A DNA stretch of 64,000 nucleotides from Candidatus Omnitrophota bacterium. Lineage in GTDB: Bacteria; Omnitrophota; Gorgyraeia; Zapsychrales; Fredricksoniimonadaceae. Location of the stretch: assembly GCA_016201795.1 (NCBI GenBank), contig JACQCF010000027.1, positions 45,454-109,453 on the forward strand. The letters run 5' to 3'. The translations under genes and the position numbers were made by a program. The notes beneath the pieces are model-generated. The model saw nothing but the letters and a program-made list of their open reading frames with translations, made no database searches and was not told the DNA's origin. Positions 5,287-25,519 of the stretch are shown piece by piece (the stretch's first letter is position 1; each line of letters begins with the position of its first letter).

Positions 5287-5653
5287 TCTGGAAAAAATTA
5301 AAATTATCGATGAGAAACAGATCCGCAAGGATCTGCCTCATTTTGACGTCGGTGATACCATTAAAATGAGAATTAAAGTGAAGGAAGCTGAAAAGGTGCG
5401 TATCCACCCGTTTGAAGGCACGGTGATTAAAAAAACTGGCCATGGTTTAGGAAAGGCTTTTACCGTGCGCAAAGTTTCCTTCGGCGAAGGAGTGGAAAGA
5501 ACTTTCCCGGTTCATTCGCCGGTGATTGAAAAAATTGAAGTGGTTGCCAAAGGGGTTGTCAAACGCGCCAAATTGTATTATTTGCGTGAACGTTTGGGCA
5601 AAAGTGCCCGCGTTAAGGTGGATCAAACACATTCGACTACGCTCAGTGTTTGA
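5276..5653 (+). CDS. rplS: 50S ribosomal protein L19 (GTG start overlapping trmD stop)
   Basis: [31 protein letters not shown]...[21 protein letters not shown] is canonical bL19. Conserved trmD-rplS synteny. Confidence 0.9.
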
Positions 5654-5710
5654 TCCTGAGTGTAATCGAAGGATCAAACCCAGGCTGCTTAAATTTAGTG
5701 CCGGCCATTT

Positions 5711-6355
5711 ATGGTTGAGCATCTCTTAAATTATGAAACGGAAGCCCAAAATCAAGGCTTCCGTTTTGTTTTAGGAGTAGATGAGGCCGGCCGCGGTCCT
5801 TTGGCCGGGCCGGTGGTAGCCGCGGCTGTATGTTTAAAAAGTTTTGATTTTACCTGCCGTATCGATGATTCCAAAAAAATGACGCCTGCTGCCCGCCAAA
5901 AAGCTTTTGATCAGATTTCTCAAAAGGCTTATGTGGGTCTGGGACTGATTTCTGAGACAGCCATTGATCAGGTTAATATTTTAAATGCTACTTTTTTAGC
6001 CATGGAAGCCGCTGTACGGCAGCTGGTGGACCAAATCCGCAAGGAGATCAGGTCAGAGGTTTTGACGGATCAGGTTAAGATTTTGGTTGACGGCAACAGG
6101 TTTAAAACCGATTTGCCTTATGCCTATCGAGGTATTATTGGTGGAGATACCAGTAGTTTATCCATTGCCTGCGCTTCGATTATAGCCAAAACGTATCGCG
6201 ATCGTATGATGGAGCATTATGACCGCATTTTTCCCCAATACGGGTTTAAAGCCCATAAAGGTTATCCCACTGCTTTGCATAAATTGGCCATTCTGCGATA
6301 CGGTCCCTCGATTATTCATCGTAAAACATTTCAAGGGGTTCTACCAGAAAGTTGA
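5711..6355 (+). CDS. rnhB: Ribonuclease HII
   Basis: VLGVDEAGRGPLAGPVVAAAV active-site motif. Length 214 aa. Confidence 0.9.
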   Translation: MVEHLLNYETEAQNQGFRFVLGVDEAGRGPLAGPVVAAAVCLKSFDFTCRIDDSKKMTPAARQKAFDQISQKAYVGLGLISETAIDQVNILNATFLAMEAAVRQLVDQIRKEIRSEVLTDQVKILVDGNRFKTDLPYAYRGIIGGDTSSLSIACASIIAKTYRDRMMEHYDRIFPQYGFKAHKGYPTALHKLAILRYGPSIIHRKTFQGVLPES

Positions 6356-6368
6356 TGAAATATCAATT

Positions 6369-6400
6369 GACAAGTTTCATGTCGTATTATATGATATTTC
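6369..6400 (+). promoter_or_regulatory. Candidate sigma70-like promoter (TTGACA...TATTAT/TATGAT) ahead of the pilin-tra-like operon
   Basis: ttgacaagtttcatgtcgtattatatgat in the 128-nt AT-rich gap after rnhB. Also a small ATTGAT-TATAA-ATCAAT palindrome at ~6401-6417. Confidence 0.3.
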
Positions 6401-6483
6401 TAAAATTGATTATAAATCAATAATTCCGGTTCCCCCATCGGAAAAACAGCAGTAAAAAATTTCCCCCAAATAGTAATTTTTTT

Positions 6484-7368
6484 ATGTCCAACAACCTGCG
6501 CTCCTACAAACAGGGATTCTCTTTAATTGAGCTTTCCATTGCTATGGCCATTATTGCCATACTGGCTTCTTCTATTGTTCCCATAGCCATTCGTTCCCTA
6601 CAAATTAGAGCAGGGGAAAAGACCGCTTTAGAAATGGCCATGATTCAAGAAGCTAGCCGTAATTATTACATTGATCATAAAGCTTGGCCCGCAGATATTC
6701 CTACTCTTCAAGCCCAAGGTTATTTGAATCCAAATTGGACGGCATTGAACCCTTGGCATAATGCTTATCAAATCTCCAGCACCAATTTGGCTTTAACCGT
6801 AAGTACCGATGTGCCGGCTCAATGGGCTAATTTGGTCGCCAGTCATTTACCGGCAGCGATAGTTAATAATGCCAATGTATCCAGTACACTTTCCTCACCA
6901 GGGGGATCTGGCTTGCAGCCAGGAGTGATTGTGGCATGGTCTGGATCCATTGCTAATATTCCAGCAGGCTGGGCTTTGTGCGACGGTACCAACGGCACGC
7001 CGGATTTGAGGGATAAATTTATTGTCGGTGTAAGGCAAGATGACGCGGGAATTTCCAAAAGTAATATTATGGGGACTTTATTGCAAACTGGTGGATCGAC
7101 AACGCACAATCATGGCGGACAAACAGGCAGTCATACCTTAACCATAGCGGAGATACCACCGCATGATCATGCTGAAAATTACTGGGTATCCATGGATTTA
7201 TCCAACAGTATAGGACTCTATGGCAATAGTCCTGGCGGACATGCTGGTATGTTTAACCCTAGACCAAGAACTGAAATGACCGGTGGCGGCCAAGGTCATA
7301 CTCATACAATTTCGAGTGACTACAATGTACCACCGTTTTACGCGCTGGCGTTTATTATGAAATTATGA
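6484..7368 (+). CDS. Type IV prepilin/pseudopilin N-terminus fused to a phage tail-collar (T4 gp12/MdpB-like) C-terminal domain
   Basis: KQG|FSLIELSIAMAIIAILA is a class-III prepilin peptidase site with Glu+5. Residues 40-70 (EASRNYYIDHKAWPADIPTLQAQGYL) are GspG/PilE-like. The C-terminus (IPAGWALCDGTNGTPDLRDKFIVG...GGSTTHNHGGQTGSHTLTIAEIPPHDH...GGGQGHTHT) matches the tail-collar family motif (P.GW..CDG......L..F..G) with His-rich repeats. Confidence 0.7.
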   Translation: MSNNLRSYKQGFSLIELSIAMAIIAILASSIVPIAIRSLQIRAGEKTALEMAMIQEASRNYYIDHKAWPADIPTLQAQGYLNPNWTALNPWHNAYQISSTNLALTVSTDVPAQWANLVASHLPAAIVNNANVSSTLSSPGGSGLQPGVIVAWSGSIANIPAGWALCDGTNGTPDLRDKFIVGVRQDDAGISKSNIMGTLLQTGGSTTHNHGGQTGSHTLTIAEIPPHDHAENYWVSMDLSNSIGLYGNSPGGHAGMFNPRPRTEMTGGGQGHTHTISSDYNVPPFYALAFIMKL

Positions 7369-8267
7369 GCATTCTTCTCTTATTATTTTTTATTCTCAGC
7401 AACAACGTATGGGCGCAGGAAAAAACTACCCACGTCACTAAGAGTATTTTGGAATTGTCAGCTATGGCGGACTTTAAGTGCGTTCAAGCTAAACCTGTGG
7501 GCGCATGTCCTAAACCGAATCGAGAGCCGCCCATTGGTGTTAAAATGCGTTTCTGGCAGCCGGAGCTTTTTATGGAAACGGTTAAGATGCCGGGGGATTA
7601 TGTCATTGCTGAATATGGAGCGACTCTGGGGTCTTTAGCTAAGACGACGATTAAAACCGAACTTGAGCTAGTCACCCACATTAGACCTTTAACAGTGACC
7701 AGCGGCAGTTCTTTTAATAGTTTAAGTAACAGTAATTTGCAATTCAATGAAGTGCACCTGTACGACTTTCCCTCGGATGATATTTTTGATGCGCTTTGTT
7801 CAGATACTCCTAATACAACTTTGGGTATTCGCTATTTTTCAGAAGTGGATAGTATTACCTGGCGACGAGGAGATATTGAAAAAGAGCTTCCACAAAGCCT
7901 GGTTGCCGAAAATATAGGCGCACAATGTAATTATTTGGTGCTAGGAGCTACGGCGGGCCAGTGTATGAAAAGCTGGGGGCCGCTTTATCCTCGTCAGGGC
8001 TTTGTCATTACTCCCAGCGGACTGGTGAGCTCTATTGTTGATGCTTTGCGGGCCGTGAGTATTGCCTCAAATCCTTTCCCCCATTTAGTAGAGGCTCCAC
8101 TGAGCTTTCAGCCCAATATCCCTATTGATAAAGTGCAAATGGTTTATCCTGTTAAAACATCCTGCTTTCCTATAGGTCAAAACCCATCCCAGTGGGAGGC
8201 TGATAAACAATCCAAGGACGGTCATTATGTATGGATTTTCTGGCATCGACGGGAGTGCTGTATTTAG
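7365..8267 (+). CDS. TraU-like periplasmic protein (F-type T4SS pilus-assembly family), secreted
   Basis: Signal peptide ...NNVWA|QE. ACPKPNREPPIGVKMRFWQPE...MPGDYV resembles the TraU CP.PPP..R.IGL...YWEP..L...PGC block as recalled from F-plasmid TraU. Also EVHLYDFP (F-plasmid TraU has HVHWYKYP) and C-terminal QMVYPVKTSCFPIGQNP (TraU has MVNMYPDSGQCHPFG). ATGA overlap with the upstream pilin gene. Confidence 0.5.
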   Translation: MSILLLLFFILSNNVWAQEKTTHVTKSILELSAMADFKCVQAKPVGACPKPNREPPIGVKMRFWQPELFMETVKMPGDYVIAEYGATLGSLAKTTIKTELELVTHIRPLTVTSGSSFNSLSNSNLQFNEVHLYDFPSDDIFDALCSDTPNTTLGIRYFSEVDSITWRRGDIEKELPQSLVAENIGAQCNYLVLGATAGQCMKSWGPLYPRQGFVITPSGLVSSIVDALRAVSIASNPFPHLVEAPLSFQPNIPIDKVQMVYPVKTSCFPIGQNPSQWEADKQSKDGHYVWIFWHRRECCI

Positions 8268-8601
8268 AAGGCGGGTCTTAACCACCTTGTTTCTTTTGAT
8301 GACAGCCAATCTCTACGCGGCCAATCCTTATCATCTAGGCCAGGTGGATTATTTTCATGATAGACCCATCACTAAAGATACGGAAGATCAAAATCAGTCT
8401 TTTGACTGGCGCGAACCAACAGTTGCTTCCGATGGTCATATAGCGTCTTACACTCCACCGGGGCCGATGCTGACGTTATTGGAAAACCCCACGCCCGAGA
8501 ATGCCAAAGTCTATCTTGCCTGGCAGAAACAAAAGGTACAGAAAATCTTCAAGGCCCAAGAACTGATCGATCAAGTGCTCAAAGAAGGAAAGCCGCTGTG
8601 A
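8227..8601 (+). CDS. Short secreted protein resembling the TraF/TrbB N-terminal region (no thioredoxin domain)
   Basis: RRR plus hydrophobic signal peptide. LENPTPENAKVYLAWQKQKVQKIFKAQELIDQVL fits the TraF N-terminal P..N...Y..LQ......F..A pattern. 124 aa. Its 5' end overlaps the TraU-like gene by 41 nt and its stop overlaps the next start (GTGA). Confidence 0.3.
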   Translation: MYGFSGIDGSAVFRRRVLTTLFLLMTANLYAANPYHLGQVDYFHDRPITKDTEDQNQSFDWREPTVASDGHIASYTPPGPMLTLLENPTPENAKVYLAWQKQKVQKIFKAQELIDQVLKEGKPL

Positions 8602-9854
8602 TTTACTTATTATTTTTATTGCTGATTATTTCTCAAATTTCTTGTGCTGATATTTTTTCTAAAACGACAGATCAAACCTCGTTAGATGAAATGCTGGCCA
8701 AAGATTCCAGGAATTTTTATTATCGCGGCAGTTTTGACTACAATGCTTACGCTCAGCCTGAACCATCCTATGATTTGGAAAAACAGAGAATATCTTTAGG
8801 ATGCAACCGTTATGATTTCCATGAAAGTCTCAAGAATCTTTTCACCCGGCCCGAATTCAACAGCATAGAACTCCAAACTTTGATGACACAGCTTTCAACT
8901 TCCAAGCTTCTGGTTTGGGAATACAGTTCTCCAACGCTGGCTGACCTTTATAAGCATTTGGACACCGTAGGCCATTTGCGTTTGGCCATCCGTTATCATC
9001 AGTGTGAGGATTTGGAAAAAGCCGTGGATGACCCCATCGTTAAATTAAGAAAACAGGCTGTGATGGATTGTATGAAGCACCAGAAAGGCGCCAATGATAC
9101 AGATGATATAGACATTGCTTTCAAAGCCTGTTTTGATCATCTTCATGATGCTTTTAATTTTGAAAAGCCCTATGAGAATCTGGAGGACCCCGCAGATGGA
9201 AGATTTCAACTTACGGGAACAATTAATGTTACAGAAAAGACGTTAAAACGAATTGACCAAAACGGAGAAAACCTAGAGATGGTTGAGAAAATTATTCCCA
9301 ATGTCTATGTTTCAGTTAATTCTGTGCGTATCAAAGGGCCCGACATACAAAGTCGTCAATTAATAGCCCAATACCGTACCAATTTTCTTTCAAATCTTAT
9401 AGAGATGATCAAAGAATACAGGCAAAATAGAACCGTCAACCCTCAGACTTTATCATCCTTATCGGTTTTTGGCGTACCTATGACCGAAGGCCAGGTGAAA
9501 AATATTGCCATGTTGGATCATACGACTGGTTATTTAGCTATGCATAAGATCGCTTCAGAACTAGCTTATCTTAAGACCATCGATCAATATACAAAAGCCT
9601 CTGAAATGTTAAATCGAGTGATGGCGCATCCAGCCATTGAGCCCGGATATAAGACATTATTAAAAAACAGCCATGATTTTGTTCAAGAGGAAATCGTTGC
9701 TCTCAGACAGGAGAAAGAACGTCTAAGCCAATATGCCAACACCATGCACGTTATTTTAGATGAAGCGGACAGGCAACGGCTTAAAACTCTGGCGTTGATC
9801 AAGGAAGAATCTATCGGCGAAGAACAAAAAGGTTTGTTGAAGATTAATCCATGA
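8598..9854 (+). CDS. Secreted 418-aa protein, possibly TraH-like (tentative), with C-terminal coiled coil
   Basis: GTG start after GAAGGAAAG. Signal peptide IISQISCA|D. It has an N-terminal LDEMLAKD...YRGSFDY...ISLGCNRYDF segment and a C-terminal helical/coiled region. F-plasmid TraH, from memory, has FFNKLG...GGSLY...INAGCGGIDAYLG and likewise a coiled-coil C-terminus. Weak resemblance only. Confidence 0.25.
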   Translation: MIYLLFLLLIISQISCADIFSKTTDQTSLDEMLAKDSRNFYYRGSFDYNAYAQPEPSYDLEKQRISLGCNRYDFHESLKNLFTRPEFNSIELQTLMTQLSTSKLLVWEYSSPTLADLYKHLDTVGHLRLAIRYHQCEDLEKAVDDPIVKLRKQAVMDCMKHQKGANDTDDIDIAFKACFDHLHDAFNFEKPYENLEDPADGRFQLTGTINVTEKTLKRIDQNGENLEMVEKIIPNVYVSVNSVRIKGPDIQSRQLIAQYRTNFLSNLIEMIKEYRQNRTVNPQTLSSLSVFGVPMTEGQVKNIAMLDHTTGYLAMHKIASELAYLKTIDQYTKASEMLNRVMAHPAIEPGYKTLLKNSHDFVQEEIVALRQEKERLSQYANTMHVILDEADRQRLKTLALIKEESIGEEQKGLLKINP

Positions 9855-10228
9855 GCACTCAATTATTAGGAAATTATGGGGAAGAGCACGCTTGCAGGTA
9901 CCTGCAAGATAAAGGCTACAAGATCTTAGAGAAGAATTTCCGCAACAGGATGGGGGAAATTGATTTAATTGCTCAAGACAAACACACTGTATGCTTTATT
10001 GAAGTCAAAACCCGAAAATCCCTTCATTGCGGCCAGCCTTATGAATCGGTACATCCTCACAAACAGCGTAAAATCGTGCAGGTGGCTTTAACTTATTTGA
10101 AATACCGTTACCGTACGGTTGAGGTCCTATCTCGATTCGATGTCATTTCTATTTATTATCCTGCCGATGGCATCCCGGAGTTAGAACACATCGTCAATGC
10201 TTTTGATTTAACCTATTTAAGTCATTGA
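9851..10228 (+). CDS. yraN: YraN/UPF0102 family PD-(D/E)xK endonuclease-like protein
   Basis: NYGEEHACRYLQDKGYKILEKNFRNRMGEIDLIAQDKHTVCFIEVKTRKS shows D...EVK motifs typical of UPF0102. ATGA overlap with the upstream secreted-protein gene. Confidence 0.8.
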   Translation: MSTQLLGNYGEEHACRYLQDKGYKILEKNFRNRMGEIDLIAQDKHTVCFIEVKTRKSLHCGQPYESVHPHKQRKIVQVALTYLKYRYRTVEVLSRFDVISIYYPADGIPELEHIVNAFDLTYLSH

Positions 10229-10344
10229 CAAACCAGAAATTATCTATTAAACTCCCTTTAAATTTGTTGACGGTTCGTTGTTGTGACCCGTCATCCCGAG
10301 GTAACGAGGGATTTCATTAAAACAGTTTTACCAAGGAGGGTTGG

Positions 10345-10518
10345 ATGGAGAAATTATCTTTTTACGACGTGAAAACCAAGGCAAAATTTGAATCTGATGA
10401 TTATTCCGTCAAAGAAAAAAGCGGACGTTTTTTCGCCGTTACCAAATCCCTCAAAGGCTCGCATGAGTGCTGGCGCGTGTTAAGCAAAGATCAAGCCGCC
10501 AAGCTCAAAAAGAAATAA
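10345..10518 (+). CDS. Small basic hypothetical protein (57 aa), absent from the ORF track because it is under 60 aa
   Basis: ATG 7 nt after AAGGAGGG. MEKLSFYDVKTKAKFESDDYSVKEKSGRFFAVTKSLKGSHECWRVLSKDQAAKLKKK*. Strong SD, lysine-rich tail, sits directly upstream of rsfS. Confidence 0.4.
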   Translation: MEKLSFYDVKTKAKFESDDYSVKEKSGRFFAVTKSLKGSHECWRVLSKDQAAKLKKK

Positions 10519-10524
10519 GCGGGA

Positions 10525-10941
10525 GTGGTTTCTATCCGAAGCAAAGCATTAACTTCCAAACAATTAGCTAGTAAAATTGCTCAATTGGCCGATCATAAGA
10601 AGGCGCAGGACATTGTCATCCTCGATATGCGGGGGTTAGTCAACTTTTGTGATTATTTTGTCTTGGCCACCGGCACTTCTGACCGCCAGGTCAAAGCCAT
10701 TGCCGAAGGTATTTATGAAGGTTTATTGGCTCTTAGCGTGCATGTGCATCGGGGACACAATTTAAAAGGTTTAGAAACAGCCGCCTCGGTGGATGGTTTT
10801 GGCGTGTGGGTTTTGTTGGACATGGGGGACGTGGTCACGCACGTTTTTGAGCCCAATGCGCGGGAATTCTACGGTTTAGAGCATCTTTGGCAGGACGCGC
10901 CCGCCGTTGTCTATAAAGCGCGCGTGAAAAAGAATGTGTGA
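10525..10941 (+). CDS. rsfS: Ribosomal silencing factor RsfS (Iojap)
   Basis: DIVILDMRGLVNFCDYFVLATGTSDRQVKAIAEGI is the RsfS core. GTG start after GGGAG. Confidence 0.8.
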   Translation: MVSIRSKALTSKQLASKIAQLADHKKAQDIVILDMRGLVNFCDYFVLATGTSDRQVKAIAEGIYEGLLALSVHVHRGHNLKGLETAASVDGFGVWVLLDMGDVVTHVFEPNAREFYGLEHLWQDAPAVVYKARVKKNV

Positions 10942-17245: not shown

Positions 17246-18388
17246 ATGATGGGATCTCGTTTAAAAGTTAAAATTGTCAAAAAAATTGAGGATGTTTCTG
17301 CGCAAGAGTGGAAGAGCGTCTTTCCCGATGTATTGGAGAATTATTATTTTTTTAAAACTCTCAATGAGTCTAACTTCCGGCAGTTTATATTCTTTTATAT
17401 TTTAGTTTATGACCAGGATATTCTCATCGGGGCCACCAGCTGTTTTATAATGGATTTTCCTTTGGACATTGCCGTCAGCGGGATCTTAAAGAAATTGACG
17501 GGTTTTATTAAAAGTTTTGTGCCGCGGCTTTTGAGCCCCAGGATTCTTATTTGCGGCCTGCCGATGGGGCAGGGAAGGATAGGAATAAAGGCCCAGTCGT
17601 GTAAAGTCATGCAAGCCATCACGCAAGCCATGGACGAAATCGCTCATCAGCAGAAAGTCGGCATTATCGCATTTAAAGATTTTATTTCCGATTACAAAGA
17701 AGCGTTTGATCCTTTGCTTGAGCAAGGTTTTTTCAGAATAGATTCCCTGCCATCTACGTATATGGACATTACTTTTGCCAGTTTTGATGAGTATTTAAAA
17801 TCATTAAGCAGTGTATCTAGAAGCGGTTTGAAAAGAAAATTTAAGGAAATAGACGGTAAAATCAATATTGATTTGGAAGTCACCAGTCAATTAAAGAACA
17901 ATGACTTGCAGGAGGTTTATGCCCTTTATTTGCAGACCTATGCGCGCAGTGAAATTAGCTTGGAAAAACTCACTCCTGATTTTTTTCAAAAAATATCGGA
18001 AAATATGCCCCATGAGGTTAAATTTTTCCTTTGGCGGATTAATCATAAGATAGTGGCATTTGCTTTATGCATGGTGTCCAGAGATTATTTTATTGATTAT
18101 TATCTGGGGTTTGATTATGGGGTGGCTTATCAGTACCATCTTTATTATGTCAGATTCAGGGATCTGATGAAATGGTGTATTGAGAATAATATGAAGAAAT
18201 ATGAAATGGGCCCCACGGCCTATGAGCCTAAAAGAAGGCTAAATTTTAGTTTTATTCCATTACATATTTATGCCAGACATCGGAATAAATTTTTTAACCC
18301 CATTTTTAGAATTTTCTGCCATATAGTAAAGCCGTCTAATTTTGATCCGGTATTTGTCAAAGTTCGTCCTAAAGTTTGTAGTTTATAG
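17246..18388 (+). CDS. GNAT-fold FemAB-like / PF04339 (BioF2-like) family acyltransferase
   Basis: ~380 aa with C-terminal ...YYLGFDYG...YEMGPTAYEPKRRLNFSFIPLHIYARH, resembling the conserved E.G...HK...GF.P.....H tail of PF04339 proteins. Confidence 0.5.
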   Translation: MMGSRLKVKIVKKIEDVSAQEWKSVFPDVLENYYFFKTLNESNFRQFIFFYILVYDQDILIGATSCFIMDFPLDIAVSGILKKLTGFIKSFVPRLLSPRILICGLPMGQGRIGIKAQSCKVMQAITQAMDEIAHQQKVGIIAFKDFISDYKEAFDPLLEQGFFRIDSLPSTYMDITFASFDEYLKSLSSVSRSGLKRKFKEIDGKINIDLEVTSQLKNNDLQEVYALYLQTYARSEISLEKLTPDFFQKISENMPHEVKFFLWRINHKIVAFALCMVSRDYFIDYYLGFDYGVAYQYHLYYVRFRDLMKWCIENNMKKYEMGPTAYEPKRRLNFSFIPLHIYARHRNKFFNPIFRIFCHIVKPSNFDPVFVKVRPKVCSL

Positions 18389-18398
18389 CTAAAGAGAC

Positions 18399-18944
18399 AT
18401 GCGTAAACTAACCCACGAAGAAATCGTCCATCGTCAAACGGCCAAAGTAAACCAGGTGCGATTGCCGTTTTGCGTGGTGCTCAACAATATCCGCAGTTTG
18501 CATAATGTGGGCTCCATTTTCCGCACGGCCGATGGTGTTGGTGTTGAGAAGATTTGGCTGTGCGGCATCACCGGCTATCCGCCGCAGGGCGGCATTGCCA
18601 AAACCGCTTTAGGCGCCGAAGATCATGTACCTTGGGGCTACCGTCAGGACGGCTTAGGTCTTTTGAAGGAGCTTAAGGCTAAAGACTATCAAATCGTGCT
18701 TCTGGAGCAAATGCAAGGGGCTGTGAGTTACGATGAATTTATCCTCAAGCCGCCGGTATGTTTGGTGATCGGCAATGAGATTTCCGGTGTTTCTGATGCC
18801 TGGCTTGAGCTTTGTGATGCGGCTGTTGACATCGACATGGCCGGCATCAAAAATTCCCTCAATGTGTCCGTAGCTTTCGGTGTGATGGCCTATCAAATCC
18901 GCTCCTGCCTTAAACCTCTTGCGCAAAAACCATTGCGACGTTAG
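18399..18944 (+). CDS. TrmH/SpoU family RNA 2'-O-methyltransferase
   Basis: NVGSIFRTADGVGVEKIWLCGITGYP and VIGNEISGVS...SLNVSVAFGV SPOUT motifs. Confidence 0.75.
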   Translation: MRKLTHEEIVHRQTAKVNQVRLPFCVVLNNIRSLHNVGSIFRTADGVGVEKIWLCGITGYPPQGGIAKTALGAEDHVPWGYRQDGLGLLKELKAKDYQIVLLEQMQGAVSYDEFILKPPVCLVIGNEISGVSDAWLELCDAAVDIDMAGIKNSLNVSVAFGVMAYQIRSCLKPLAQKPLRR

Positions 18945-18954
18945 AATAATTTCC

Positions 18955-19176
18955 ATGAATATCGATGCCAAGAAACTTTTACGCAATAAGAAAGTCATCG
19001 CGGAAATCAACCGGCATAAATGGCTGGAAAGCGAAATTGCCGGCTACGATATCGGTTTTGAAGCCGCGGCTGAGAGTTGGCTTAAAAACCACGCTGTCGC
19101 CTGGGTGGCTTACCATATGAAAAACTCCTCCACAACATCCGCCGCAAGCGCCTCTAAAAAGAAAAAACGGTCTTAA
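18955..19176 (+). CDS. Hypothetical small protein with Ser/Lys-rich tail
   Basis: ORF with ATG at 18955. Track start 18919 would overlap the trmH-like gene. No recognisable domain. Confidence 0.3.
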   Translation: MNIDAKKLLRNKKVIAEINRHKWLESEIAGYDIGFEAAAESWLKNHAVAWVAYHMKNSSTTSAASASKKKKRS

Positions 19177-19181
19177 AAACC

Positions 19182-19925
19182 ATGAAGATATTGTTCTATC
19201 GGGGAATTTTAACAGCGCTGTTAGTGAGTGCGTTTGCATGGAGTGTTTGGGCCCAGGATAAAATGAATTTGCCATCGCCGTCAGGTTATGTCAATGACTT
19301 TGCCGGTATGATGGAGCCCGTGGATCAGCAGGCCATTAATGCTTTGTTGACGGCGTTAGAATCAAAAACCACCACCCAGGTGGCCGTGGTCATCGTCGTA
19401 ACCACCCAACCTGACACAATCGAACAATACGCGGTCAAGCTCTTTCAAAAATGGGGCATCGGACAAAAAGGTAAAGATAACGGCGTTTTGTTTTTAATCG
19501 CGGTGCGTGACCACACTTTACGAATTGAAGTCGGCTATGGTTTAGAGGGTGTTTTAACGGATGCGATTAGTTCTCAGGTTATTAGTCAGATTGTCGTACC
19601 TGAATTTAAGCACGAGCGGATGTCCTATGGTATTTTGCAGGGTACCAGAGCCATTGTCAGTTTGATTGCCAAAGAGTATGGGGTGACTGTCACGGGTCAG
19701 GAAGCGGCGATTTACAACAGTCTTCATAGCGACACCTCAGGACTTTGGATTATTGTTTTTGTGTTTATCCTTATTTTTATGTTTTATGCTTTTTCGTTTA
19801 GCCGTCGTGGTGTAGGCTGGTATGGTTATTATGGTGGGGGCGGCGGTTTCTCAGGCGGTTCCGGAGGGTTTGGCGGTTTCGGTGGAGGTATGAGCGGCGG
19901 CGGGGGAGCGAGTGGAAGTTGGTAA
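19182..19925 (+). CDS. TPM-domain (TLP18.3/Psb32/YgcG-like) protein with C-terminal TM and Gly-rich tail
   Basis: Signal peptide, then GYVNDFAGMMEP...LESKTTTQVAVVIV...GIGQKGKDNGVLFLIAVRDHTLRIEVGYGLEG is the TPM phosphatase-domain signature. Followed by a TM helix and a GGGGFSGGSGGFGG tail. Confidence 0.75.
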   Translation: MKILFYRGILTALLVSAFAWSVWAQDKMNLPSPSGYVNDFAGMMEPVDQQAINALLTALESKTTTQVAVVIVVTTQPDTIEQYAVKLFQKWGIGQKGKDNGVLFLIAVRDHTLRIEVGYGLEGVLTDAISSQVISQIVVPEFKHERMSYGILQGTRAIVSLIAKEYGVTVTGQEAAIYNSLHSDTSGLWIIVFVFILIFMFYAFSFSRRGVGWYGYYGGGGGFSGGSGGFGGFGGGMSGGGGASGSW

Positions 19926-23088: not shown

Positions 23089-23945
23089 TGACCTATTCAC
23101 CTATAGTGTGGATTGCTTTTAACGCGGGAGTAGTGGCTCTTTTATGCTTGGATGCTTTGGTTTTAAACCCCAAAGGCCGTGAAATTACTTTGCGCCGTGC
23201 CCTGGCCACGACAGCCTTTTGGCTTTTGCTGGCTTTATTATTTAATTTAGGGATTTATTTTTGGCTGGGCGATCAAAGAGCTTTGGAATTTTTAACCGCC
23301 TATATGGTAGAGCAGTCTTTAAGTATCGATAACCTTTTTGTGTTCCTGTTGATTTTTGCTTATTTTAAAATATCACCTGCGGATCAGCACCGGGTGTTGT
23401 TGTGGGGGGTCATCAGCGCCCAGATCATGCGGGCGGTTTTTATTATTGGCGGGATAGCCCTGTTGAGTCATTTCCACTGGATGATCTATGTCTTCGGCGT
23501 TATTTTGCTCATCACAGGTCTGAAATTATTTTTTAAGAAAGACCAACGGGTGCATCCCGAACGTAATCCCATCCTTCAAATCATCGGTAAAAATTTACCC
23601 ATCTTTCTGGTTGTGCTGATTGTGATTGAGACCACGGATTTGATTTTTGCCATTGATTCCATCCCCGCGGTTTTAGCCATCACTAAGAATGTTTTCATCG
23701 CGTATTCCTCAAATATCTTTGCGATTTTGGGTTTGCGGGCCATGTATTTTGTGCTGGCTTCTTTTATGAAAATATTCCATTATTTGCATTACGGGCTAGG
23801 GGTGATACTAGTTGCCGTGGGTCTTAAAATGCTTACCGAGCATCTCTGGCCTGTTCCGGTGGTGCTTACCCTTAGCTTTATTCTCTTGACGTTAACCGTG
23901 ACGGTAGTTTTTTCCATCCTATGCCCGCCCAAGGCACAAAAATAA
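23085..23945 (+). CDS. TerC/Alx family integral membrane protein
   Basis: EQSLSIDNLFVFLLIF and AIDSIPAVLAIT...FAILGLRAMYF TerC motifs. Multi-TM. Confidence 0.8.
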   Translation: MMTYSPIVWIAFNAGVVALLCLDALVLNPKGREITLRRALATTAFWLLLALLFNLGIYFWLGDQRALEFLTAYMVEQSLSIDNLFVFLLIFAYFKISPADQHRVLLWGVISAQIMRAVFIIGGIALLSHFHWMIYVFGVILLITGLKLFFKKDQRVHPERNPILQIIGKNLPIFLVVLIVIETTDLIFAIDSIPAVLAITKNVFIAYSSNIFAILGLRAMYFVLASFMKIFHYLHYGLGVILVAVGLKMLTEHLWPVPVVLTLSFILLTLTVTVVFSILCPPKAQK

Positions 23946-25519
23946 TTCAGCCATGGTGGTGGTTTTTAGGTCTTATGGCTGTTGGAGTGGCGATTTTTTT
24001 TCGTTTTTGGCATATCATGGATAACCAATTCCTATTTTATGATGAAGGGATGTACTTAGGGTACAACCGAAGTTTTTTAAATTTAGTTGCGGCTAATCCT
24101 CCCCAAGACCTGCACGATTTATTCATTATTTTAGGATTGATGTTGAAAATTGCTTTAACCACCGCCAAAGCGTTATGGTTTTTTCTGTTGAACTTAAGGG
24201 TTTTTATCACAGGAGCGCAAGGGTGGTATTTTGCCCGTGTGATTTCAGCCATGGCAGGCATAGCCACCATTGTGGTAACGTATCTTTTTGCTCATCGGTA
24301 TTTTCAATCTAAAAAGATCGCGGTTTTAAGCGCGGTATTTTTAAGTCTTTTGCCCAGCCATGTGTTTTATTCCAGGCTTGGCATGCAGGAGTCTTTGAGT
24401 ACTTTATTGTTCCTGACAGCTCTTTATCTCTATTGGTTTGATGGGTCCATAAGTTGGCGCACGATCGTTTCTGCCCTTTTATTGTCCGGTGTATTTTTGA
24501 CTAATTACCGTATGATTATTGCTCCCATTTTTATCGTTGCTATTGAGACTTTTGAGGCCTTTAAAAATTATGGCTCTATTCATTGGAAAAAATTGATAGT
24601 GTACATAGCTGTTTTTTGTACCACCACCTTTTGGATAGGTTCTTTATACGGCGGTGTTAATCGTTATGTAACTATTAACTGGATGTTTCATCAGGCTCAG
24701 CAGGCCAAGATAGGGTGGAGTTTACTCAATTTGTTTTCCTATCCCTATGAGGTGTTTGCTCTGGAAAGCCTTTTGTTTGGTTTGATATTTTGGGCTAATA
24801 TGTATTTGATTATTCAAAGACAATGGCTCAGACTTTTGCCTTTTGTTCTAGTACTTCTTCAAATGGGGATGTTTTCTTTAGCCGCCGAGCAAGGAGCGAG
24901 GTATCTGTGCGTGGTCTTGCCTTTGATGGCGATCGCCGCGGCCGTAAGTGCGGATTATTTTTTAGGATTGTCCCGAAAGTGGTTTTATGCTCTGGTCGTC
25001 ACCATCGTCTTATCGTGTGGGATGATGGGTATACAGTCTTTGAACATTGTTTTTTCCCGTACGGATTATGCGGAGGCTGTCCATCTTATTTTAAGGCATG
25101 ATCCCAAAGCCAAAATGCTCTCGACCCAGCCTTTGGTTGAGCAGCTTTATGTGGAAAATGAGAATCTCATCAAAGATTGTCCGCATCATCTGCAGGATTT
25201 GATTAACCTTTACAGTCAAGATTATGATTATTTGATTTTAGATCCGCAAGCATATATTTCCTGGACCAAAGATACAGATCATTTCAGTCCACCTTTAATT
25301 GATTTTTTAGAATTTATTCATGCCCAGGTGCCGCCCGTGGCTGTCTTGGAGCATCTCAATGGTGTTCTGTTAAAACGTTTTGTTTGGGATCACAACCGGA
25401 ATTTTGTACAATCGATTAAATTTTTAAATTTAGCTCCACAGGCCGGCTACGGTCAGATTCGAATTTATGATATTGGCCAGTCTTTAATGATGCTTAAAAA
25501 ATATAAAATCTTACGATAA
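23921..25519 (+). CDS. GT-C fold membrane glycosyltransferase (ArnT/PMT, GT39/GT83-like)
   Basis: 532 aa. ~11 N-terminal TM helices with a periplasmic C-terminal domain. FYDEGMYLGY in the first loop is reminiscent of the ArnT/PMT catalytic loop. Confidence 0.55.
   Translation: MPAQGTKIIQPWWWFLGLMAVGVAIFFRFWHIMDNQFLFYDEGMYLGYNRSFLNLVAANPPQDLHDLFIILGLMLKIALTTAKALWFFLLNLRVFITGAQGWYFARVISAMAGIATIVVTYLFAHRYFQSKKIAVLSAVFLSLLPSHVFYSRLGMQESLSTLLFLTALYLYWFDGSISWRTIVSALLLSGVFLTNYRMIIAPIFIVAIETFEAFKNYGSIHWKKLIVYIAVFCTTTFWIGSLYGGVNRYVTINWMFHQAQQAKIGWSLLNLFSYPYEVFALESLLFGLIFWANMYLIIQRQWLRLLPFVLVLLQMGMFSLAAEQGARYLCVVLPLMAIAAAVSADYFLGLSRKWFYALVVTIVLSCGMMGIQSLNIVFSRTDYAEAVHLILRHDPKAKMLSTQPLVEQLYVENENLIKDCPHHLQDLINLYSQDYDYLILDPQAYISWTKDTDHFSPPLIDFLEFIHAQVPPVAVLEHLNGVLLKRFVWDHNRNFVQSIKFLNLAPQAGYGQIRIYDIGQSLMMLKKYKILR

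Follow-up and report, generated by a model that had tools for sequence, protein, structure and literature searches.

A modular pilin with a phage tail-fiber head in Omnitrophota, a candidate adhesin of a conjugation-type gene cluster

A prepilin and a tail-fiber head encoded by one gene

The window analyzed here, a 64,000-nucleotide stretch of contig JACQCF010000027.1 from a Candidatus Omnitrophota bacterium, carries at positions 6484–7368 of the forward strand a gene with an ATG start for a modular protein of 294 amino acids (aa), which combines a type IV prepilin with a phage tail-fiber head and is called the collar-pilin below. The protein starts with MSNNLRSYKQG|FSLIELSIAMAIIAILASS, in which the bar marks the predicted prepilin-peptidase cleavage site (G|F) at the end of the leader peptide (aa 1–11; 6484–6516). 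The leader is followed by the mature pilin module (aa 12–137; 6517–6894), consisting of a long alpha1 helix (aa 14–65) and a small globular beta-sheet domain, by a Gly/Ser/Pro linker, SPGGSGLQPG (aa 138–147; 6895–6924), and by the tail-fiber ("tail collar") head with its HxH motifs (aa 148–294; 6925–7365). All these parts, and the promoter-like site and the genes from TraU to yraN described below, lie on the forward strand. NCBI lists the exact sequence under MBI3602614.1 with the name "tail fiber protein [Candidatus Omnitrophica bacterium]," and other members of the family are named only generically there.

A preliminary description made from the sequence alone had recognized a prepilin N-terminus with Glu at position +5, and profile searches bear this out. 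The Pfam model N_methyl (PF07963) matched the collar-pilin with E = 1.2e-7 and 31.4 bits (gathering score 21.2), and the NCBIfam model TIGR02532 with 7.2e-8 and 32 bits (cut-off 16.3), both above threshold; the NCBIfam equivalog models for GspG, ComGC, and ComGE gave weak matches below their cut-offs. In an alignment of 72 homologs, Glu+5 (E16) is invariant, Phe+1 (F12) is conserved in at least 90%, and position −1 is Gly or Ala. The W68-P69 motif, W85, W91, and Y95 are near-invariant in the pilin part of the same alignment. A family profile compared with Protein Data Bank (PDB) sequences matched the pilins geopilin, PilE, GspG, and TcpA over aa 4–77. The collar-pilin has both the class III signal and the pilin fold of type IV prepilins, and these comparisons indicate that both are genuine.

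The motifs from which a C-terminal tail-collar module had been proposed are present: IPAGWALCDGTNGTPDLRDKFIVG, HNH (208–210), HDH (227–229), and HTH (272–274). Conservation of the head histidines reaches 96% for H217, 92% for H227, 86% for H229, and 82% for H272, and the near-invariant positions of the head core in the 72-sequence alignment include I149, W152, G154, P160, G162, W163, C166, G168, D174, and L175. By Pfam alone the tail-collar claim would look shaky, because the match to the Collar model (PF07484) is confined to aa 147–170 and, at 19.8 bits, falls short of the gathering score of 24; Gp10_C was also a weak match, and the Collar model is passed by the family members P0002 (precomputed PF07484) and P0253 (83.7 bits). 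The family profile matched the PDB sequences 9qgo (a tail fiber; 1.6e-22), 9nxk (the tail fiber of Pseudomonas phage Pa223; 1.3e-18), and 6ov6 (Bizionia C24; 8.3e-16), with starts at aa 118/131/151 and ends at aa 292, and the HxH motifs of the head align with those of the solved fibers in the profile alignment. Tail families of PHROGs matched at 5.7e-27 and 5.3e-16. A tblastn search with aa 148–294 returned 174 phage records, and in most of the annotated records listed the match was to a tail-fiber or other tail gene. Together with the prepilin models, the PDB-profile, PHROGs, and phage tblastn matches verify the two halves of the chimera. Judged from these alignments, the homology of the head to tail fibers is solid and far beyond chance. 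The earlier assignment to the tail-collar fold of T4 gp12 stands in that the head is homologous to tail-fiber tips; the Pfam Collar match remains below threshold, and the similarity to gp12 was marginal in both the fold search and PHROGs.

The name given at NCBI and the strong similarity to phage tail fibers would also suit a plain phage, prophage, or tailocin tail-fiber gene whose pilin-like N-terminus is fortuitous. We regard this as exceedingly improbable, given that the gene is flanked by rnhB, TraU, TraH, yraN, rsfS, argS, and recJ, with no phage gene in the vicinity, that the composition is not anomalous, that residues 1–137 amount to a full pilin fold throughout the family, and that the gene is linked in an operon to pilus and tra genes in 21/21 loci. 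The GC content of the collar-pilin region is 0.40–0.46, the same as that of its surroundings; with this, the absence of phage genes, and the housekeeping flanks, a prophage or tailocin origin of the region was rejected.

The head alone is found in many phyla. Head-only matches included 14 on plasmids, 9 of them on Serratia plasmids, and 9/14 were predicted to be conjugative. One of these, the Serratia marcescens IncI1 conjugative plasmid pQE21 (AP028587.1; L089, 8590–9477), has, within a block of unannotated large genes, one for a protein of 295 aa whose collar head is homologous. The prepilin N-terminus was not present in this open reading frame (ORF), the one plasmid counterpart inspected.

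The AlphaFold2 (AF2) model of the collar-pilin is a monomer with a mean predicted local distance difference test score (pLDDT) of 79.8. The pilin module is very confident, with alpha1 at aa 14–65 and a small sheet extending to aa 137. The linker (aa 138–147) is a coil with a dip in pLDDT, and it shows small indels within the family; the head is beta-rich and less confident, with pLDDT below 50 at aa 236–259. The tabulated figures of the structure comparison were 8.8 for PilA1, 8.3 for EpsG, 8.1 for CofA, 6.4 for TcpA, 5.6 for TcpB, 5.2 for 9nxk, 4.5 for CofB, and 4.3 each for the T4 gp37 tip and 6ov6.

A homolog search over 5.8 billion proteins gave 3,336 matches, the best 120 of which cover 88–100% of the query at 44–100% identity and are 269–308 aa long. 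Because these best 120 matches are near full-length, the fusion is a conserved family, neither an assembly artifact nor a singular event. The fusion is thus kept in related genomes: when contigs were looked up and GTDB species genomes scanned, 24 loci with full-length homologs emerged, all in Omnitrophota, some of which carry a Planctomycetales label from automated pipelines. The earlier notion of an unusual chimera does not survive as that of a singular oddity, since the Omnitrophota family is large and conserved and pilin and tail-collar fusions are on record in PMC9881135 and in Dataset S1 of PMC8179133.

The pilin module alone (aa 1–135) was also searched with phmmer against 1.84 billion representatives, which yielded 926 proteins at E ≤ 1e-3, of which 120 reached E ≤ 1e-10. 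Among the best 150 matches, at least 38 bear collar heads and others, of 220–400 aa, have no recognizable head. Three further proteins among these 150, of 1,190–1,445 aa, carry the Peptidase_S74 chaperone, an intramolecular trimerization chaperone of tailspikes and fibers, and one of the three also has YadA head repeats. These three belong to a set of four very long pilins with the same N-terminal module, P0281, P0292, P0322, and P0311 (1,190–1,833 aa); the protein of 1,833 aa has no recognizable domain past N_methyl. To our knowledge, all identifiable heads on this pilin module (collar, S74, and YadA) are obligate homotrimers. Since the module is shared with the strictly trimeric fiber modules S74 and YadA, the carrier itself may be argued to work as a trimer.

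The structures 9qgo, 9nxk, and 6ov6 were each deposited as three chains. In T4 gp12, the HxH motifs hold Zn on the threefold axis, with each of its three chains contributing two His (PMC3004832). These observations bear on an arrangement in which collar-pilin monomers are placed along the shaft, or form the major subunit, so that the filament is decorated with many lectin heads that do not trimerize. Raynaud et al. (PMC8179133) consider a shaft location of modular pilins possible given a flexible linker, and the AF2 monomer model has no obvious clashes. We nevertheless find such a filament decidedly unlikely: the solved homologs of the head are all three-chain assemblies, the conserved HxH motifs need three chains for the metal site, the S74 chaperone and YadA modules of the sister architectures fold only as trimers, and relatives have a separate gene for a small major pilin. 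A homotrimer at the tip, the arrangement that we prefer, is taken up below.

The variation among family members is concentrated in a hypervariable loop at aa 231–260 (7174–7263), putatively at the tip of the head. Column entropy there is 2.6–3.1 bits, with indels, and the remaining mature protein has 0.35–1.9 bits; the only other variable stretch is the leader peptide (aa 1–10; 2.3 bits). At the closely related loci L001, L018, and L021, the neighboring genes are mostly 90–99% identical (79–82% for two poorly conserved small ORFs), and the collar-pilins are 80–84% identical. The difference lies in one block of about 28 residues directly behind the HxH motif, which is replaced as a whole (L001, 8001–8831; L018, 7062–7889; L021, 10446–11273), and the more distant L013 and L017 share the loop version of L001. 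These alignments indicate that the loop undergoes recombinational, cassette-like exchange between strains. Localized mosaic variation is the pattern of receptor-binding proteins, and together with the low pLDDT of the region it marks the loop as a putative specificity determinant. Shufflon or inversion-based variation was rejected at this locus: no meaningful inverted or direct repeats were found in 5600–10700, there is no recombinase, and the stop codon of the collar-pilin gene is overlapped by the following gene.

Gene neighborhood in the window and in relatives

Upstream of the collar-pilin gene lie trmD, rplS, and rnhB, followed by a gap of 128 bp (6356–6483) that contains a sigma-70-like promoter, TTGACA-17 nt-TATGAT (6367–6395), with 11/12 matches, a consensus match only. 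Downstream, the gene for a TraU-like periplasmic protein (7365–8267; PF06834, 1.9e-28, 100 bits against a gathering score of 26.5; TIGR03756, 1.1e-17) has a start codon that overlaps the stop codon of the collar-pilin gene (ATGA). The next gene (8227–8601) encodes a small protein, 124 aa as listed, that has no Pfam or NCBIfam match, is conserved in relatives, and stands at what we take to be the trbC position after traU in the F plasmid order. A TraH-like protein of 418 aa follows (8598–9854; tblastn, 5e-47 to a PF06122-bearing protein of L001; weak TIGR03755 match, 1.8e-6). The promoter-like site fits independent transcription of this four-gene cassette, which in this clade lies apart from the remaining cluster.

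The stop codon of the TraH-like gene is overlapped (ATGA) by a gene of the UPF0102/YraN family (9851–10228; PF02021, 1.1e-30), a PD-(D/E)xK-like family. A yraN gene follows the TraH-like gene in two divergent clades (L004/L007, 10976–11341; L005, 7145–7522; L006, 4965–5342; L008, 13774–14151); it may be either a conserved chromosomal neighbor only or functionally tied to the transfer system. Further downstream are rsfS, argS, recJ, and pepF, and the remaining annotated window encodes housekeeping metabolism. An ORF of 532 aa at 23921–25519, amid housekeeping genes, has no Pfam match at 1e-5. When all operon proteins of the relatives were searched against the window by tblastn, only the four-gene cassette and the UPF0102 gene were returned. 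Pfam analysis of 30 further window ORFs gave housekeeping families and no A24 peptidase; some ORFs within 34–64 kb were left out.

The relatives place the collar-pilin in a larger cluster. In all 21 loci with enough flanking sequence to be evaluated, TraU lies directly downstream of the collar-pilin, and the order TraU-x-TraH is kept (21/21). In 17 of the 21, the collar-pilin is preceded by a secretin (MshL, 4e-60; PilN-IVB, 1e-40), two uncharacterized proteins (one of 390–510 aa and a small one with weak PilP/GspC similarity), a PilB-like ATPase with an MshEN domain (MshE/PilB-like), a PilC-like platform protein, and a major pilin. The major pilin has about 145 aa and its own G|F..E5 signal, and it matches Bundlin (29.6 bits) and PilS (22.1 bits), both at or above the gathering score. 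In these 17 loci, the collar-pilin is the sole or nearly sole minor pilin of a pilus operon and stands downstream of the major pilin; the window, L005, L006, and L008 are arranged otherwise. The position after the major pilin is the place of the adhesin minor pilin in type IVb operons.

Farther upstream, the relatives have a small VirB2-like ORF, TraL, TraE, an uncharacterized protein, TraB/TrbI, another uncharacterized protein, and TraC (TIGR02746, 1.4e-111, below the equivalog cut-off), and in one clade TraG_N and a coupling protein (T4CP) are also encoded upstream. Across the window and its relatives, the F-type gene set thus comprises TraU, TraH, TraL, TraE, TraB, TraC, TraG_N, and the coupling protein. 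The VirB2-like ORF, of 93 aa with weak similarity, is found at the traA position. The compact pilus module, from secretin to collar-pilin, is contained within the F-ordered tra operon in L085 (5123–22481), L086 (1113–22538), and L007 (650–13320); with traA-L-E-K-B-V-C ... traU-trbC ... traH taken by us as the F-plasmid order, the module has traC before it and traU behind it. Neither a relaxase nor an integrase was detected near the cluster in about 31 kb of relatives, where divergent ones may escape detection; as no relaxase was found, it is not established that the cluster belongs to the conjugative elements. The Pfam annotation precomputed for the relatives' operons contains no A24 peptidase, and no TraN homolog was seen in the F-ordered clusters.

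This gene content bears on a further explanation, in which the protein is processed like a pilin and no extended pilus is made; it would then be the tip of a short, periplasm-spanning pseudopilus, or a TraN-like lectin anchored in the envelope that stabilizes mating pairs. The missing TraN homolog would fit such a role, the ATPase, platform, and secretin would equally fit a piston like that of a type II secretion system, and the gene in the window accompanies TraU and TraH, with its own promoter-like site, and not the pilus machinery. However, a Bundlin/PilS-like major pilin and a secretin adjoin the collar-pilin in most relatives, which speaks for a real external filament, and a distal display is what best suits fiber heads whose tips are hypervariable. 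We therefore judge this explanation unlikely, and a pilus adhesin remains our favored reading.

In the window and in its closest relatives, L005, L006, and L008 (60–65% identity), the cluster is broken precisely at the boundary of major pilin and collar-pilin. The downstream synteny yraN-rsfS-argS-recJ-pepF is kept in this clade, with 69–80% identity for the housekeeping genes and 47–65% for the cassette genes, and the sequence upstream of the collar-pilin differs from genome to genome.

In one clade, an extra ORF of about 136–156 aa lies between the major pilin and the collar-pilin (L001, 7619–8029; L012, 3604–4074; L019, 10001–10471; and others). Its equivalent in L023 has weak similarity to the N-terminus of the collar-pilin (2e-8), and the ORF probably encodes a second minor pilin that has no head. 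One clade has HTH_17, DUF6577, AbiEii, and FRG genes downstream of TraH (L001, 12507–15686), and L019 has a ThiF and JAB pair (17609–19364); these are defense-island-like cargo beside the cluster.

Proposed role as a tip adhesin

The interpretation that we prefer, with a probability of roughly 0.6, is that the collar-pilin is a modular minor type IV pilin serving as the adhesin of the pilus of a conjugation-type (F-ordered) secretion cluster conserved in Omnitrophota. A homotrimeric minor pilin and adhesin at the tip is suggested by where the gene stands, behind the major pilin, by the build of the protein (pilin, linker, and bulky head), and by the exclusively trimeric heads, and the HxH motifs and localized hypervariability converge on the same role. 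The genomic context and the pattern of variation thus point to the tip-adhesin or receptor-binding function that had been proposed from the sequence; nothing was found in support of the accompanying suggestion that phage-like targets are bound.

From these data we infer how the protein may be processed, trimerize, reach the tip, and bind a ligand. A prepilin peptidase encoded elsewhere would cut the 11-residue leader at G|F, and the hydrophobic alpha1 helix and small pilin fold would allow entry into the filament like any pilin. Three copies would join through their C-terminal tail-fiber heads, a type of head that in phage is an obligate trimer, with the HxH histidines of the three chains holding a metal on the threefold axis. 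The trimer would go in first and, because pili grow from the base, would end as the tip cap, much as the initiator trimers CofB and TcpB do in type IVb pili. The distal loop (aa 231–260) would then bind a surface structure of the target cell, probably a glycan such as lipopolysaccharide (LPS), and this binding would set which recipient, host, or prey cells contact the transfer apparatus, as PilV does for the R64 thin pilus.

Several points weigh against this interpretation. The pilus machinery, the major pilin, and a prepilin peptidase were not found in the window by tblastn and Pfam, and the pointer to pilus machinery in the same genome is suggestive: TraC MBI3601277.1, with an accession 1,337 away from that of the pilin, MBI3602614.1, may belong to the same metagenome-assembled genome, an unconfirmed assignment that follows from accession proximity only. 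The pilus module (L007, 9549–9998 and 6803–8338) mixes IVa/MSHA and IVb traits. The 11-aa leader with Phe+1 in the collar-pilin and the relatives' major pilin, the MshEN-type ATPase, and MshL as the best secretin model are IVa/MSHA-like; the Bundlin/PilS-like major pilin and the secretin match to the PilN-IVB model are IVb-like. The Pfam scan of the collar-pilin gave no PF04917 match at E ≤ 1, and thus no detectable homology to PilV. The confidence of the head in the AF2 monomer is low to moderate (pLDDT 44–88), and the TM-scores of the fold search were low (0.22–0.28). The trimer of the collar-pilin is proposed by analogy, and because the linker is short (10 residues), the fit of a threefold-symmetric head onto helical pilin packing is assumed from the example of CofB. 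That every member of the family acts as a tip adhesin is likewise presumed from sequence.

A wider interpretation, which we put forward tentatively and consider rather unlikely, concerns the machine as a whole. Omnitrophota are thought to be host-dependent nanobacteria. Swappable phage-derived trimeric tips (collar, S74-chaperoned, and YadA-like) would cap the built-in type IV pilus of a vertically inherited, chromosomally fixed, and apparently relaxase-less F-like machine, and would be its host-range determinant, diversified through cassette exchange like that of phages and steering attachment and the delivery of a cargo of effectors or DNA to host or prey cells, and not ordinary plasmid conjugation.

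If the adhesin reading is true, phage receptor-binding modules serve cellular organisms as swappable pilus tips, and the threefold symmetry of the fiber head fits the model of a trimeric tip initiator that has been put forward for type IVb pili. Partner recognition in Omnitrophota, which are uncultivated and suspected of living as parasites or predators, would also become concretely testable: the hypervariable loop might be matched against hosts that co-occur, and recombinant heads might serve as probes for target cells. Because the Collar match is below the Pfam threshold, the Omnitrophota family escapes domain-based censuses of modular pilins, and the present analysis flags a large protein family that such censuses miss.

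Comparison with known systems

Modular pilins, and one published fusion of a PilV N-terminus with a tail collar, are already established. As far as the searchable literature shows, the large Omnitrophota family, the distinct small pilin on which its heads are carried, its place within an F-ordered tra operon, and the exclusive use of trimeric fiber heads are undescribed. The Omnitrophota papers searched mention T4a or Tad pili, and TraU, conjugation genes, and tail-fiber pilins are not mentioned in them.

The solved or characterized phage tips, namely those of Pa223 (9nxk), 9qgo, Bizionia argentinensis C24 (6ov6), the T4 gp37 tip, and gp12, are homologous to the collar-pilin over aa ~131–294. 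The common core comprises WsG-IP-GW-LCDG-GTPDLR, the HxH motifs, and a C-terminal PPYYxLxFI strand. Unlike the phage fibers, the collar-pilin has neither a fiber shaft nor a virion-attachment domain and has a pilin instead.

Among modular pilins, a module is likewise grafted by a short linker in Streptococcus sanguinis PilB (vWA module) and in the IPR012902-Peptidase_S74 architecture (PMC8179133). PilB has a module of another type and is treated as a monomeric subunit, whereas the collar-pilin would be an obligatory trimer if the inference holds. The census of Raynaud et al. in 2021 (PMC8179133) covered 1,219 proteins in 264 architectures; in its Dataset S1, the tail collar occurs only in two singleton IPR012902 + IPR011083 architectures, and the pilin-S74 combination in 29 proteins. 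Milman et al. in 2023 (PMC9881135) described UCP91044.1, a fusion of a Shufflon PilV N-terminus with a phage tail collar encoded among pilus genes, and hypothesized that the domain from the phage tail had been put to a new use in specifying recipients. UCP91044.1 and the Dataset S1 singletons share the design of the collar-pilin, a pilin carrier with a tail-collar head (with IPR011083 presumably denoting the tail collar domain). The UCP91044.1 type is larger (1,575-nt gene), with a PilV-type N-domain and programmed inversions, whereas the Omnitrophota proteins have a different, small pilin module and no inversion system.

CofB of the CFA/III pilus of enterotoxigenic Escherichia coli is the experimental precedent for a trimeric tip minor pilin that starts assembly and mediates adhesion: its C-terminal domains homotrimerize, and the trimer initiates assembly and is located at the tip of a three-start filament (PMC6048534). 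The head of CofB consists of an H-type lectin and a beta-repeat in a protein of ~500 aa, whereas the collar-pilin, with 294 aa, bears an unrelated tail-fiber collar. Its short leader with Phe+1 is unlike that of classical type IVb pilins, the class of CofB and of TcpB of the Vibrio cholerae TCP pilus, and its trimer is presumed. No sequence homology of the collar-pilin to PilV (PF04917, Shufflon_N), CofB, or TcpB was found.

Judged by analogy, the nearest functional counterpart appears to be PilV of the R64 thin pilus. In R64, pilV stands at the distal end of the secretin-ATPase-platform-major pilin cluster of a conjugation system. Like the collar-pilin, PilV, the tip adhesin minor pilin of the IncI1 R64 thin type IVb pilus, and PilV2 of PAPI-1-type integrative and conjugative elements are prepilins with a variable C-terminal part that is exchanged between strains. 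The collar-pilin differs from PilV in that it has no detectable Shufflon_N homology and no shufflon, that is, no inverted-repeat cassettes or recombinase, and in that its head is a phage tail-fiber module; the secretion system that goes with it follows the F order (TraL, E, B, C, U, H), in contrast to the I-type of R64. By binding LPS, PilV of the R64 thin pilus picks out recipients (as summarized in PMC9881135), and the hypervariable loop of the collar-pilin may select the partners of the Omnitrophota system in a comparable way.

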